DNA from: Nitrososphaerota archaeon
Lineage (GTDB): Archaea; Thermoproteota; Nitrososphaeria_A; Caldarchaeales; Calditenuaceae
Length of the DNA stretch: 64,000 nt
Assembly (NCBI GenBank): GCA_033581555.1
Contig: JAVQSZ010000001.1
Span: 32,001-96,000 of the forward strand
Direction: 5' to 3'
Position 1 is the first letter of the stretch. Every line of letters starts with the position of its first letter. Under the pieces are notes generated by a model. That model worked only from the letters and a program-made list of their open reading frames with translations. It did not search any database and was not told the origin of the DNA. The translations under genes and the position numbers were made by a program. Shown here piece by piece: positions 60,811 to 64,000 of this stretch.

Positions 60811-61515
60811 GTGAACGCCTCCGAGTTGGAGTTAGGCGACGTTTTCAGGACCGCGGTTCCACCCCTGTTGTCAGCTATGTTAGTCCTAGGAGTTGTCGTT
60901 CTGTTCCCCGGGCTGATCCCCGGGACCTACAAGGTCACGACCGCGACCGTTCCAGTCCCCGTCTTCACGACACGGTTCGTTAACGTCACGACGACCCTGA
61001 CCACCGCCTACCTCGTCGACTCCCGGGGACCTGTTTGGGAGCCAGTGTTCGTGGACCTCTCGGAAAGGCCCACCGAGGGGACGATCACCGTCCTTAACAG
61101 GACGCTGACCAAGGAGAAGCCAGCGCTCGCAATAGTCTTCATAGCCGCGGCGCCCCGAGGTTACGAGTTCGCGAGCACGGTGAACGGCTTCGTCTACAGG
61201 CTCGAGGCTAAAGTCGCGAACAGGGTCACGGCGCTCGTCGCGGAGGCGTCACCTCCAGTCATCCCAGGGCTCAGCCGCGAGAACTTCAGGGACCTGCTGA
61301 CGGAGAGGGCGTTCTCACCGGTTAACGTCCTGCCGTTCCAGAACCCGAGGAGGACCGAAGTCTCACCGGGGCCCTTCACACTCCAGAGGGAGCGTGGAGC
61401 CTACGTGCCGTATCCGTGGCTCGCGATCTGGCCGATCTCGGTTCACCTCTACGGCATCGAGAGGGACGTCCACGTGACGGTCACGCTCTCCTACAGCCTG
61501 GTCGGGGCGAAGTGA
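60811..61515 (+). CDS. Membrane-anchored hypothetical protein with Thr/Val-rich stalk
   Basis: N-terminal TM, Thr-rich segment, NVT/NRT sequons; stop overlaps the GTG of the E1 frame. Confidence 0.65.
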   Translation: MNASELELGDVFRTAVPPLLSAMLVLGVVVLFPGLIPGTYKVTTATVPVPVFTTRFVNVTTTLTTAYLVDSRGPVWEPVFVDLSERPTEGTITVLNRTLTKEKPALAIVFIAAAPRGYEFASTVNGFVYRLEAKVANRVTALVAEASPPVIPGLSRENFRDLLTERAFSPVNVLPFQNPRRTEVSPGPFTLQRERGAYVPYPWLAIWPISVHLYGIERDVHVTVTLSYSLVGAK

Positions 61516-62354
61516 GGCAGGAGCTCGCGCGGCGGACTCGGGTCTTCGAGATCTTCAGGATGGACGAGGACCGGTATGAGCGGCAGAGGAGGCTCTGGGA
61601 CCAGAGGAGGATATCGTCCCTGAAGGTCCTAGTGGGAGGTGCAGGGGCGCTCGGGAACGAGGTCGTGAAGAACCTGGTCCAGATCGGCGTGAAGAGGGTC
61701 TACGTCGTCGACTTCGACAGGGTCGTCCACTCGAACCTGAACAGGTGCCTCTTCTTCAGGAGAAGCGACGCGACCAAGAGGGCGAAGAAGGTCGATGCGC
61801 TCGCGAGGAGGGCCTCGGACCTCAACCCGGACGTGGAGGTCATTCCGGTCTTCGGGGACATTCGCGACCTCCCGAGCGACGTGATCAAGGACGTCGACAT
61901 GGCCCTTGGGGCCTTCGACAACCTCTTCGCTAGGCTCGTCCTCAACGCGATGTGCTACTCTAACGGTAAGCCCCTAGTTGACGGCGGAATGGAGGGGGTG
62001 CTCGGGACGGTCCAGGTCGTCCTCCCCCCGGAGAGCCCCTGCCTGGAGTGCGGGATGAGTGAGCGGGACCTCGAGCACATGTGGGAGAGGATCTCCTGCA
62101 GCGGCGACGTCGTCGTCGATGACGGTCCGAAGCTGCCCTACATTCCAATGACCGGAGCCCTCGTCGGAGCTCTGCAGGTCATGGAGGCGGTCAAGATAGT
62201 CCTCGGCCTCGAGTCCTACAGGTCTTCCGGGAGGTGGAACGAGTCGGTCGGAGCACCCCTCGTCGGCAAGTCCCTCTTCATCGACCTCAGGTCCAACCTG
62301 AGCTACGCCTACGACCTCCACAAGAGGAGCGACTGCAACGTCTGCGCCCCCTGA
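61512..62354 (+). CDS. Ubiquitin-activating E1-like enzyme (ThiF/UBA family)
   Basis: DRYERQ, GAGALGNEVVKNL, D.D.V..SNLNR..FFR, PCLEC, likely catalytic Cys in ISC, C-terminal CNVC; start GTG 61512 or ATG 61560. Confidence 0.92.
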   Translation: MRQELARRTRVFEIFRMDEDRYERQRRLWDQRRISSLKVLVGGAGALGNEVVKNLVQIGVKRVYVVDFDRVVHSNLNRCLFFRRSDATKRAKKVDALARRASDLNPDVEVIPVFGDIRDLPSDVIKDVDMALGAFDNLFARLVLNAMCYSNGKPLVDGGMEGVLGTVQVVLPPESPCLECGMSERDLEHMWERISCSGDVVVDDGPKLPYIPMTGALVGALQVMEAVKIVLGLESYRSSGRWNESVGAPLVGKSLFIDLRSNLSYAYDLHKRSDCNVCAP

Positions 62355-62438
62355 TCGGGCAGTCCTCGCCTCGACCCCTGCCCGTTTCTCTCGCGTTCTG
62401 TGTCAAGATTTTATAGGTGCCACTAATTCACTCCACGC

Positions 62439-62852
62439 GTGGAAAGAACTAGGTCGAGGGCAGGCCTCAGCGAAGCCGTAACGGCCATTCTGCTGGTGGT
62501 GATCGGGATTGCGATGGCGCTCATGATCTGGCAGTTCTTCACACCACGTCCGACTGAGGAGCTGAGAATAGGGCCCGTCGACGTCTCGGGAGGGGTGGTC
62601 GTCTTCACGGCGCAGAACGTCGGGAGCGTAGACGCGGAGATAATCGGAGTCGCGTGCTACACCGCGGGACAGCCTCCGGCGGCCGGAGGAGGGGTGACTC
62701 CCTTGGGCGGCGCGGACACCAAGCTTCAGCAGGGCGAGTCGAGCACCTTCACCGGGAGCTGCGGAGGCGCGGAGCCAGGCAAGCCGATCAACGTGATGGT
62801 CTATACCAAGAACAAGGCCTACGGTCCTTTCACGGTCATCGTCAGGTCGTGA
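62439..62852 (+). CDS. Archaeal type IV pilin-like protein (class III signal peptide)
   Basis: MERTRSRAG|LSEAVTAILLVVIGIAMALMIW; beta-rich domain with N.G.V and two Cys; TTTTATA box at 62409. Confidence 0.82.
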   Translation: MERTRSRAGLSEAVTAILLVVIGIAMALMIWQFFTPRPTEELRIGPVDVSGGVVVFTAQNVGSVDAEIIGVACYTAGQPPAAGGGVTPLGGADTKLQQGESSTFTGSCGGAEPGKPINVMVYTKNKAYGPFTVIVRS

Positions 62853-62967
62853 CGAGTTCACCTCCTCAACGAGAGTTGATTTTTCGCATTGATAATCGAG
62901 CAAACCCGCGTTCTTCGATTGACGAGAAACACATATATCATGCCGGCACGAAGCAAACTTGATTGAC

Positions 62968-63789
62968 ATGATCGTTACCGTGAACGAGCTGACCACTAAG
63001 CGAAGCGTCAGGTTGGAGGTCGAGCCCGGCCACACGGTGAGGGCGGTCGTCGAGGAGGTGATGAAAGCGCTGAAGGTCCCGCCGCAGACGACGTACAGGC
63101 TGGTACTGGGCGGGAAGGAGATCGGGCCAGAACTCTTCGACAAGACGCTGGGCGAGCTGGGCATATCGGACGGTGCTGTGATGGACCTCGTCCCGAGGCC
63201 CGTCGGCGGATCAACCCTCTTGCCCAAGGAGAAGTTCCTGAAGAGGCTGGAGAGGGAGGAGGAGGACCTGAGGAACGGCGGGTACCCTTTCACCAGACAA
63301 GACGTCTGGAGTCCGATGAACTTCCCGATGGTCTACAGCGCAGGCTACGAGACGGTCAACGTGGCGGTGAGGTACACGGTCTCCTTCAGGGCCAGGGGGT
63401 TCGTCATGACGAAGAGGGGGATCGAGGAGCAGTGGGACCACTTGGCGAGCCTCTACGTCCTCGACTACTACCCCTACATGGATCCAAAGAAGGGTGCACC
63501 GATGAGGATATTCTGGGAGAGCGACATTTTCCACCCTAACATCTGCCCTGGGCCCCGCTTCAACGGAAACGGGCTCGTCTGCTGGAAGATGATCAAGGAA
63601 TGGGGGAAGACCTTCTCGCTCGCGACGCTCGTGAGGGGGCTTCAGCTCCTCGTCGAGAACCCAAACCCCGAAGACCCGCTCAGCAAGATACCGATATGCA
63701 TGCACGCAGCGTCCTTCTTCAAGGAGAACCCGCACCTCACGGGCACCTACAGGCCAGATACCGGAAGCAGGCCCAGAGTGATCGAATAG
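62968..63789 (+). CDS. Ubiquitin-like domain (ends PVGG) fused to a ubiquitin-conjugating E2-like domain
   Basis: Residues 1-81 have a ubiquitin beta-grasp pattern (LEVEP..TV, RLV.GGK, KTL.E.GI.DG...DL...GG); the rest has KRL.RE, YP, P, IFHPNI, G.VC, W, L..L..NPNPEDPL. Confidence 0.88.
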   Translation: MIVTVNELTTKRSVRLEVEPGHTVRAVVEEVMKALKVPPQTTYRLVLGGKEIGPELFDKTLGELGISDGAVMDLVPRPVGGSTLLPKEKFLKRLEREEEDLRNGGYPFTRQDVWSPMNFPMVYSAGYETVNVAVRYTVSFRARGFVMTKRGIEEQWDHLASLYVLDYYPYMDPKKGAPMRIFWESDIFHPNICPGPRFNGNGLVCWKMIKEWGKTFSLATLVRGLQLLVENPNPEDPLSKIPICMHAASFFKENPHLTGTYRPDTGSRPRVIE

Positions 63790-63799
63790 GTGCGAGGAC

Positions 63800-64000
63800 T
63801 TGAGGGGAGAGGAGGCGGGCGTCCTCCCCGTCTACGTCGAGCTGGAGGCCCTCGTTAAGGCCGTCAGGCACTGTAGGGAGGGACTGCCTTACGAGGTCAT
63901 CGGTTTCCTGATTGGAGAGCGGCTGAGGTGGAGGGACAAGCTCTACGTCTTAATCACCGACACCGTGAGGGGTAGGTCGGTTCAAACCCGCACCTACGTC
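63800..64000 (+). CDS. JAB/MPN+ (Rpn11-like) metalloprotease, N-terminal part (runs off window; not in ORF track)
   Basis: TTG 63800: MRGEEAGVLPVYVELEALVKAVRHCREGLPYEVIGFLIG..., matching the Rpn11-type V.I...ALLK...H....P.EV.G...G; the HxH motif lies beyond the window. Confidence 0.82.
   Translation, partial: MRGEEAGVLPVYVELEALVKAVRHCREGLPYEVIGFLIGERLRWRDKLYVLITDTVRGRSVQTRTYV

Follow-up and report, generated by a model that had tools for sequence, protein, structure and literature searches.

Comparison with described ubiquitin-like conjugation systems

The origin of eukaryotic ubiquitylation is mainly approached through archaeal ubiquitin systems, of which the operon of Caldiarchaeum subterraneum is, to our knowledge, the only one that has been reconstituted. 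According to the sections of two reports drawn upon here (PMC5654768, PMC6043591), this operon encodes ubiquitin (Ub), an E1-like protein, an E2-like protein, a small RING finger protein, and an Rpn11-like protein. In the sections of the latter report that deal with processing, the Rpn11-like protein (CsRpn11) cleaves the Ub precursor exactly after its Gly-Gly and also cleaves linear Ub fusions, the cleavage of such fusions depending on the fold that lies downstream (Fuchs et al., PMC6043591). Bacterial Type I Bub (6E.1) operons, in the portion of the preprint considered (bioRxiv 10.1101/2024.11.21.623953), encode a pre-protein of a ubiquitin-like protein (Ubl) and an E2 (BubAB), a fusion of a JAB domain and an E1 (BubCD), and BubE; the JAB domain of BubCD cleaves BubAB right after a conserved Gly, and BubB uses a Ser/His and BubCD a Tyr, resulting in oxyester intermediates. 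The present analysis concerns a locus of a Calditenuis archaeon (genome G000; 1.43 Mb, 90.6% complete) at the end of a 64,000-nucleotide stretch of contig JAVQSZ010000001.1, hereafter called the window, to which all positions refer; genes past its end were read from the genome as L006. In the last 2.5 kb of the window, the genes for a short E1, a pilin-like protein, a Ubl::E2 fusion, and an Rpn11-like JAMM protease lie in the same orientation, all on the plus strand. A preliminary description, made from the window sequence, had reported these four genes; open reading frames (ORFs), Pfam matches, and alignments confirmed its observations, including the quoted E1 motifs, the Gly-Gly of the Ubl, the HPN and Cys of the E2, and the start of the JAB gene, and its interpretation is partly supported. 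With a probability of roughly 0.6, this locus represents a laterally acquired second eukaryote-like Ubl conjugation system of the Calditenuis archaeon, present beside a canonical operon, with the modifier being made as a Ubl-GlyGly-E2 pre-protein that is cleaved by the JAMM protease.

The locus resembles the Caldiarchaeum operon in that the same five kinds of parts are present, namely a Ubl with Gly-Gly, a ThiF-type E1, an E2 with HPN and Cys, a RING-type candidate, and an Rpn11-like JAMM protease. Similarly, its Ubl would need C-terminal processing, as CsUb does. However, it is not simply orthologous to that operon, a possibility that the preliminary description had raised, as the orthologue is a Ub-E2-E1 set on contig 7 of the same genome, and the E1 and E2 trees both separate the second system from it. 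Compared with the Caldiarchaeum-type E1, the second-system E1 is about 125 residues shorter and lacks an insertion and a ubiquitin-fold part. Furthermore, its Ubl is fused to the E2, and its RING candidate is small and soluble with an Asp ligand, whereas in relatives, the RING domains encoded beside the canonical clusters are the C-terminal parts of membrane proteins. As in Type I Bub, the tag has no coding sequence other than the one in front of its E2, and a Gly is conserved where the two parts meet. In contrast with Bub, HPN and Cys are present in the Calditenuis E2 and the loop Cys is present in its E1, the JAB and E1 genes are separate, and a RING candidate is present. In addition, DUF6527 (BubE) gave no match in the 17 neighbouring proteins scanned. 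Because of these differences in chemistry, JAB-E1 fusion, and BubE, and of the presence of the RING candidate, the resemblance to Bub is one of design and not of family. The locus also differs from the SAMP/UbaA and MoeB/ThiF sulfur-transfer systems, as it has an E2 and its E1 falls below the UbaA, MoeB, and ThiF cut-offs. In the literature searched, which did not cover supplements and subscription journals, no description was found of Calditenuis having two ubiquitin systems or of a Ub-GG-E2 pre-protein in any archaeon; genes of this kind may be listed in Supplementary Fig. 13 and Table 3 of PMC6053391.

The fused Ubl-E2 gene

The fusion ORF (62959-63789, plus strand) encodes 276 amino acids (aa) from a TTG start, with an ATG at 62968. 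Residues 1-84 (62959-63210) form the Ubl domain, with Pfam ubiquitin and Rad60-SLD matches; the ubiquitin-family match at residues 7-78 scored 23.2 bits in the ORF scan, just below the cut-off of 25.4, and PF00240 exceeded its cut-off in the genome search (26.0 bits). Residues 85-276 (63211-63789) form the E2 (UBC) domain, with a UQ_con match at residues 180-243 (31.0 bits, cut-off 27). The Gly-Gly consists of residues 83-84 (codons 63205-63210) and is internal to the ORF, and alignments of the Ubl domain to polyubiquitin entries of the PDB run up to it. The HPN motif is located at residues 192-194 (63532-63540), followed by Cys208 (63580-63582). In phmmer alignments to solved E2s, Cys208 coincides with the Cys of the HPN...G-x-I-C-L motif, which we take to be the catalytic Cys of E2s. 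The E2 Cys, of which the position had to be checked according to the preliminary description, hence stands at the active-site position. Alignment A1 shows no variation at H192, P193, N194, and C208, and alignments A1 and A2 together show none or nearly none. An AlphaFold2 model of the fusion, based on a 58-row alignment, has a mean predicted local distance difference test score (pLDDT) of 84.4 and predicts a beta-grasp fold for residues 1-80 and an E2 fold for residues 90-256; the linker 81-85 around Gly83-Gly84 (pLDDT below 50) is the sole low-confidence stretch between the two folds. With the first domain, Foldseek retrieved ubiquitin and NEDD8 (template modelling score 0.80-0.85, root-mean-square deviation about 2 Å, 28-31% identity). 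With the whole fusion model, the top 50 Foldseek matches were ubiquitin chains only, so that the assignment of the E2 rests on its sequence.

The fused frame is no assembly error. It was retrieved as a single open frame of 272-276 aa, without stops and with 78-95% identity, in five of the seven genomes of the genus (G000, G001, G002, G004, and G006). In addition, gap-free contigs cover the ORF in four runs from three other hot-spring studies, and the only two indels listed in those contigs are both situated in the spacer 62408-62426. On these two grounds, the fusion is considered real and kept. Of the other two genomes of the genus, G003 (84% complete) had its canonical E2 as the sole match, a weak one, and G005 (66% complete) gave a match confined to a probably foreign contig, described below. 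The other 34 family- and order-level relatives gave only matches of 20-30 bits, to their own canonical Ub and E2. Searches with the Ubl domain and with PF00240 revealed no free copy of this Ubl in the 90.6%-complete genome, and the fusion is therefore taken as its only source.

The Gly-Gly joint and related fusions

The Gly-Gly at the joint is kept in all forms of the Calditenuis clade. A search of 5.8 billion proteins revealed the fused form in six full-length clusters (P0001-P0006; 65-90% identity). Three others (P0007-P0009; 61-75% identity) are N-terminally truncated, divergent past about residue 176, or represent the E2 part only; the next 40 matches were free E2s of 156-193 aa, of Asgard origin where named. 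An exhaustive HMMER search of 1.84 billion representatives resulted in 231 matches at E<=0.001, and 14 of the best 150 were retrieved. Eight of these 14 proteins (P0050, P0070, P0081, P0084, P0146, P0149, P0160, and P0165; 28-43% identity; clusters of 1-6 members) contain the Ubl and the E2 in a single stretch, and all eight possess Gly-Gly at the joint (once Gly-Gly-Gly), HPN, and Cys. The architecture, which the preliminary description had presented as an unusual one, is not unique, since at least eight further metagenomic protein clusters contain a Ubl-GG::E2 fusion, the short-E1 class is found in several archaeal phyla (see below), and Bub provides a precedent. The free E2s of this subfamily (nearest 42-46% identity) start at the residue after the joint position, and the nearest free Ubls (83-88 aa, 44-48% identity) end in GG plus 1-2 residues. 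As the GG is always kept, the free E2s begin after the joint, the free Ubls end in GG plus 1-2 residues, and the linker is modelled with low confidence, the joint looks like a cleavage site.

Thermoplasmatota and Micrarchaeota matches that span residues 1-276 in tblastn were considered as fusions too, and were ruled out, as the Ubl and the E2 occur in separate, often abutting frames in 18 of the 22 related loci whose frames were read. The remaining four loci (L114, L116, L118, and L122, from Thermoplasmata/Thermoplasmatota metagenome-assembled genomes, MAGs) do contain a fused frame, of 237-241 aa, in which the E2-like domain has kept HPN and lost the catalytic Cys and no Gly-Gly is present at the joint; judging from these residues, they are dead fusions. 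Since the GG occurs in every active-Cys fusion seen, while the GG-less forms have also lost the Cys, active fusions seem always to keep a cleavage-type joint, which would be lost only together with the active site. As for other combinations of this E2 subfamily, a metagenomic protein of 475 aa (P0064) appears, by eye, to combine a Cys-less E2-like domain with a Ser/Thr protein kinase-like domain.

The activating enzyme and the JAMM protease

The gene for the short E1-like Ubl-activating enzyme (61512-62354, plus strand; about 280 aa) was listed as an ORF from 61416. Its likely start is the GTG at 61512, which matches the orthologues of 280 aa and overlaps the stop of an upstream gene, coding for a 234-aa membrane protein, by 4 nucleotides (nt). 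The protein contains the motifs GNEVVKNL, SNLNR..FFR, and GxGxxG, and matches Pfam ThiF with 157.6 bits (3.7e-46). Its closest PDB entries are eukaryotic UBA1 (7e-23), versus MoeB and ThiF at about 1e-15. Furthermore, it scored below every NCBIfam cut-off (85 versus 450 bits for UbaA, 114.8 versus 275 for ThiF, and 78.7-91.7 versus 266-449 for MoeB), and it stands apart from the MoeB-like paralogue of the genome, contrary to a grouping with MoeB/UbaA enzymes that the preliminary description had considered. It comprises an adenylation domain, a crossover-loop Cys, and two CxxC pairs. The crossover-loop Cys is conserved across 16 aligned short E1s, and both CxxC pairs are kept in the Calditenuis, Bathyarchaeia-type, and Asgard short E1s of that alignment. 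Short E1s measure about 250-300 aa and their chain ends just past the last zinc-motif position, except for a longer form in Armatimonadota. The canonical Caldarchaeales E1, in contrast, possesses an insertion of roughly 75 residues and a C-terminal ubiquitin-fold part, in which a weak ubiquitin-family match was found.

The gene for the Rpn11-like JAMM/MPN+ metalloprotease begins 10 nt past the stop of the fusion gene. Its first 67 of 160 residues are encoded in the window (63800-64000, plus strand) and it continues to window-equivalent 64282. Beyond the window edge, where the preliminary description could not follow it, the complete ORF (L006 5801-6283) contains the whole H-x-H...S-x-x-D motif and matches Pfam JAB with 52.9 bits (cut-off 22.5; 3.8e-14). 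Among solved structures, the closest are those of a 'proteasome subunit N11-like protein' (6fjv; 4e-18), presumably CsRpn11 itself, and yeast Rpn11 (3e-17).

A second system beside the canonical one

Over the Pfam cut-offs, the genome contains two UQ_con, three ThiF, and three JAB loci. On contig 7 (L019 9171-11127), genes for a Ub of 78 aa, of which Gly-Gly are the very last residues, an E2 of 182 aa (UQ_con, 92 bits), and an E1 of 406 aa lie together; a JAB gene is found about 19 kb away and is not adjacent to this canonical set. Order-level relatives contain the same Ub-E2-E1 set, with JAB and membrane RING genes nearby. Because the canonical set is present in the same genome, the fused locus is a second system. 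The E1 tree (45 rows, careful search) was rooted on the MoeB-like paralogue of the genome, which forms the outgroup on a branch of 1.6. In this tree, a canonical Caldarchaeales clade (support 96/91) excludes the E1 of the locus, and a short-E1 clade (100/98) includes it. Within the short-E1 clade, the Asgard sequences form one group (100/99), and the second E1 of Calditenuis joins a Bathyarchaeia-type pair (97/91), long branches meeting at this join. The E2 tree (quick, 49 rows) agrees, with a split from the canonical E2s supported at 100 and a grouping of Calditenuis with the Bathyarchaeia type supported by a Shimodaira-Hasegawa-like approximate likelihood ratio of 92. The second pathway and the distinctness from the Caldiarchaeum-type operon that the preliminary description had proposed are both borne out in this way.

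A pattern scan with one genome per species resulted in 80 loci with E2s of this subfamily. The Asgard clusters (L052-L113; Promethearchaeota, Thor-, Hermod-, and Hodarchaeota MAGs) resemble the Calditenuis locus in the short E1 (32-39% identity over the full length), in the E2 subfamily (35-42% identity, with the insertion between HPN and Cys and the LVENPNPEDPL motif), and in a Ubl that ends in Gly-Gly plus a short tail. They differ by a JAB-E1-E2 order with the Ubl as a separate gene, which in two loci lies with a membrane RING gene on the opposite strand (tblastn). In addition, the Asgard E2s are without the extra segment that the Calditenuis E2 has after its first helix, and the Calditenuis E1 and E2 branch outside the Asgard clade, as sister to the Bathyarchaeia-type pair. 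The Thermoplasmatota and Micrarchaeota loci (L048-L051, L094, L097, L104, L106, and L109) and the Bathyarchaeia-type loci (L062 and L056) share the short-E1 class and the E2 subfamily as well, and related sets occur in Armatimonadota too. The gene order of L106 is E1, Ubl, E2, JAB, and in the other Thermoplasmatota loci with a detected Ubl this gene immediately precedes those of the E2 and JAB; the E1-Ubl-E2-JAB order, also retrieved by tblastn, likely represents the pre-fusion state. The Bathyarchaeia MAG locus L062 has a Ubl-E1-E2-JAB order together with a coiled-coil RING protein (tblastn). Unlike the Calditenuis locus, no pilin-like gene was detected in these Thermoplasmatota, Micrarchaeota, and Bathyarchaeia-type clusters with the queries used, and no paper on them was found in the literature searched. 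Of 401 genomes sampled from the phylum, only five matched at E<=1e-12. Three belong to this genus, one is an unfused relative (39% identity), and one has a stop between the Ubl and the E2. The short-E1 class spans several archaeal phyla, with Asgard, Thermoplasmatota, Bathyarchaeia-type, and Micrarchaeota loci, and the presence of the E1 and E2 in Calditenuis is read as lateral acquisition of a set rather than duplication of the canonical operon.

Contig 91 of G005 (6843 bp; L024/L056) contains a Bathyarchaeia-type Ubl-E1-E2-JAB cluster that is 61-82% identical to L062. Because of its G+C content (0.44, as opposed to 0.59-0.65 in three further contigs of G005), this contig is treated as foreign, being probably a mis-binned or mobile piece. 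Four bacterial loci from Armatimonadota MAGs (L117, L120, L121, and L123) encode an E2, an E1 of 412-423 aa, and one or two JAB proteins; their E1 falls inside the archaeal short-E1 clade, beside that of Thermoplasmatota (98/95).

A candidate RING protein

The preliminary description had reported that no RING E3 was visible, which turned out to be an effect of the window edge, as a conserved variant RING candidate is encoded 2.2 kb downstream by an ORF of 108 aa (L006 8490-8816). Its ligand pattern, C-x2-D...C-x2-C-x4-H-x2-C-x10-C-x2-C, keeps seven of the eight ligand positions. The ORF is conserved in all five Calditenuis loci and is still located beside the fusion gene in the rearranged genome G001. 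It aligns with the C-terminal RING domains encoded beside the Asgard, canonical, and Bathyarchaeia-type clusters, and the Bathyarchaeia-type RING, which is C-terminal in a coiled-coil protein of 351 aa, has the same unusual C-P-V-x first site. The only homologue cluster of the candidate carries a precomputed PF14446 mark. A complex prediction of the E2 (residues 85-262) with the candidate gave 0.24 and 0.22, versus a mark of 0.32, and is used neither way. The 108-aa protein is accordingly named a candidate E3. The RING proteins of six Asgard and canonical Caldarchaeales clusters (L054, L055, L101, L105, L025, and L026) are, by eye, hydrophobic and apparently polytopic membrane proteins with a C-terminal RING; the Calditenuis candidate, likewise by eye, is a small protein without a hydrophobic region of this kind.

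Proposed mechanism and alternative explanations

In the preferred reading, the Rpn11-like JAMM protease would cut the pre-protein after Gly84, so that a Ubl ending in a reactive Gly-Gly and an E2 whose N-terminus is native-like would be released in a 1:1 ratio. Cleavage at this site is proposed because no free Ubl was found, the JAMM gene lies 10 nt downstream, and CsRpn11 and BubCD offer precedents. The short E1 would adenylate the Ubl and load it on its crossover-loop Cys, after which the Ubl would move on to Cys208 of the E2 and from there to lysines of targets, with the small variant RING protein as a probable aid. Removal of the tag may be a further task of the JAMM protease. If this is the case, two unrelated eukaryote-like cascades can run in one archaeon, raising the question of how cross-talk is avoided. 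Further, transfer would have carried the short-E1 type known from Asgard to Caldarchaeales and other phyla, and a canonical HPN/Cys E2 could be made as a ubiquitin-E2 polyprotein, which echoes eukaryotic ubiquitin-fusion genes and bacterial BubAB. As small proteins from a thermophile are involved, cleavage and thioester assays should be straightforward. A narrower version, which is regarded as rather doubtful, would make cleavage an obligatory on-switch that sets tag and E2 at 1:1 for near single-turnover use on the E2 itself or a few targets, possibly pilus components, instead of bulk degradation, and would have the design arise independently of BubAB and spread laterally between archaeal phyla. 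If true, it would constitute an archaeal counterpart of eukaryotic ubiquitin-fusion precursors.

Several observations weigh against the preferred reading. The linker from the Gly-Gly to the first E2 helix counts only about 5 residues, which matters given the fold dependence of cleavage in the part of Fuchs et al. considered (PMC6043591). For high-flux tagging, it is odd that a tag that is consumed and an E2 that acts as a catalyst would be made in a 1:1 ratio. The short E1 is without the C-terminal ubiquitin-fold domain used for E2 recruitment. In the JAB tree (46 rows, quick), the groups cohere, but the deep branches, with supports of 0-38, do not place this JAB. The RING candidate reached 18.8 bits for Prok-RING_1, under the cut-off of 29.1, one of its zinc ligands is replaced by Asp (Met in the Bathyarchaeia type), its AlphaFold2 model has a pLDDT of 66.7, and Foldseek gave no match at E<=0.001, the best being RING and U-box domains (E 0.035-0.5). 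Further, the E1 gene of G001 is situated 17 kb from the fusion gene, so that the set of four does not constitute a fixed operon. In the window, the genes are separated by about 85 and 107-116 nt, and these spacers contain TATA-like boxes, which suggests, by eye, separate transcripts for the E1, the pilin-like gene, and Ubl::E2-JAB. The boxes, at 62409-62416 (TTTTATAG) and 62932-62938 (ATATAT), precede the pilin-like and Ubl::E2 start codons by about 25-33 nt, so that the transcripts may be leaderless. The pilin-like gene probably has its own promoter, because the TATA-like TTTTATA is present about 25 nt upstream.

The short linker and the lack of a ubiquitin-fold domain on the E1, where the canonical E1 has its weak ubiquitin-family match, would also fit a fusion that stays uncleaved, with the Ubl acting as a built-in module of the E2, for docking on the short E1 or for regulation, and with the Ub of contig 7, or nothing, as the transferred tag. 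Uncleavable Ubl-E2-like fusions do exist, in 4 of the 22 loci, with neither Gly-Gly nor Cys. This explanation is unlikely. An uncleaved linker would not need the Gly-Gly that is kept in every active-Cys fusion seen, and the forms that lost it have lost the catalytic Cys as well. In addition, the gene that follows the fusion encodes a JAMM protease with an intact motif, identity between the canonical Ub and the fusion ORF amounts to only 18% (alignment A2), and the BubAB pre-protein, which is of this kind, is cut according to the part of the preprint considered (bioRxiv 10.1101/2024.11.21.623953). That the locus is a redundant, decaying paralogous copy without a function of its own is very improbable. 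The canonical system in the same genome, the absence of a copy from G003 (84% complete) with the queries used, and the RING that is degenerate at one ligand could point that way, but all ORFs are intact in five genomes, with 57-95% protein identity and no internal stops, every catalytic motif is kept, and independent metagenomes carry the same frame.

A role in antiviral defence or conflict, as in the bacterial Bil, Bub, and CBASS Cap2/Cap3 modules, with proteins of the invader being tagged in place of a housekeeping role in proteostasis, had been put forward in the preliminary description and is improbable. The patchy distribution (five of the 401 sampled genomes of the phylum at E<=1e-12), a phylogeny that departs from that of the species, and the occurrence as a second copy beside a housekeeping-type system would suit such a role, as would the Ubl-E2 pre-protein design shared with Type I Bub; of the 544 Bub operons in the part of the preprint considered, 8% adjoin a CapW/BrxR-type regulator and 31% a CapH+CapP pair, both immunity-linked (bioRxiv 10.1101/2024.11.21.623953). 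However, the PADLOC models, which date from 2023 and cover Bil, CBASS Cap2/Cap3, and 6A-MBL and not newer systems, matched only as generic E1-E2 and JAB models, for the adenylation domain (best 9.5e-15, 52.6 bits) and the JAB (1.4e-5, 22.6 bits). They gave nothing for Ubl::E2 or for four of the seven other proteins scanned, and marginal matches for the remaining three (E 0.0017-0.0092). Furthermore, the flanking genes are of housekeeping and pilus type and not of defence, a scan of viral contigs gave only two weak matches to E2s of giant viruses, and the E2, RING, and JAB are of a eukaryote-like and not of the Bil/Bub type. The surface-related module, also suggested in the preliminary description, has only the gene neighbourhood of a single genus in its favour. 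In this reading, the system would serve the adjacent type IV pilus-like machinery by tagging or controlling pilins or assembly factors, with the pilin-like protein as substrate or partner. The observations that suit it are the pilin-like ORF within the cluster, the two further pilin-like N-termini on the other strand (one with a weak DUF7288 match), and the T2SSE ATPase and T2SSF platform protein 4-7 kb downstream. Likewise, in the rearranged G001, Ubl::E2-JAB is still beside these pilin-like genes and the ATPase, and the E1 is still near the pilin-like gene. Yet this linkage may be inherited gene order of one genus, no pilin or T2SSE match was obtained with these queries in the Asgard, Thermoplasmatota, and Bathyarchaeia-type loci, the pilin-like gene seems, by eye, to have its own promoter, and the pilin label is itself unproven, making a pilus role quite improbable.

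Gene neighbourhood

Upstream of the E1 gene, a predicted membrane protein of 234 aa is encoded (60811-61515, plus strand) that has no Pfam or NCBIfam match. Its gene adjoins the E1 gene in all four relatives considered (tblastn; G002, G004, G006, and the rearranged G001), and it is uncertain whether it is part of the Ubl system. The 137-aa pilin-like protein (62439-62852, plus strand) has, by eye, a charged N-terminus followed by a hydrophobic helix, resembling a class III signal peptide. It gave no Pfam match even at E<=10 and no NCBIfam match; in the atlas, it was placed with archaeal hypothetical clusters at 0.94, one of which has Pilin_N in 11% of its members. The protein is 84-96% identical in four relatives, and its pilin label is plausible but unproven. 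Beyond the JAB gene on L006, three minus-strand genes come first, two of them with pilin-like N-termini, and these are followed by the 108-aa ORF, a 285-aa helical protein, a 358-aa helical protein on the other strand, and an ATP-binding cassette pair. The 285-aa and 358-aa coiled-coil proteins gave only sub-threshold Pfam noise, and BLASTP revealed no significant similarity between them or with the Bathyarchaeia-type coiled-coil RING protein (best E 0.021).

In G001, the gene order is rearranged to pilin-like genes, RING, two helical proteins, Ubl::E2, JAB, and ATPase; its E1 is flanked by the 234-aa membrane protein and, past a secreted protein of 752 aa, by the pilin-like gene. From this rearrangement, it follows that Ubl::E2, JAB, and RING travel together and that the E1 can sit apart. 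Lastly, L006 13164-18000 (window-equivalent 71163 on) encodes a T2SSE ATPase (600 aa; 3.7e-22), a T2SSF platform protein (553 aa; 3.7e-7), and a large protein with a pilin-like N-terminus, which together would constitute a type IV pilus-like assembly set.

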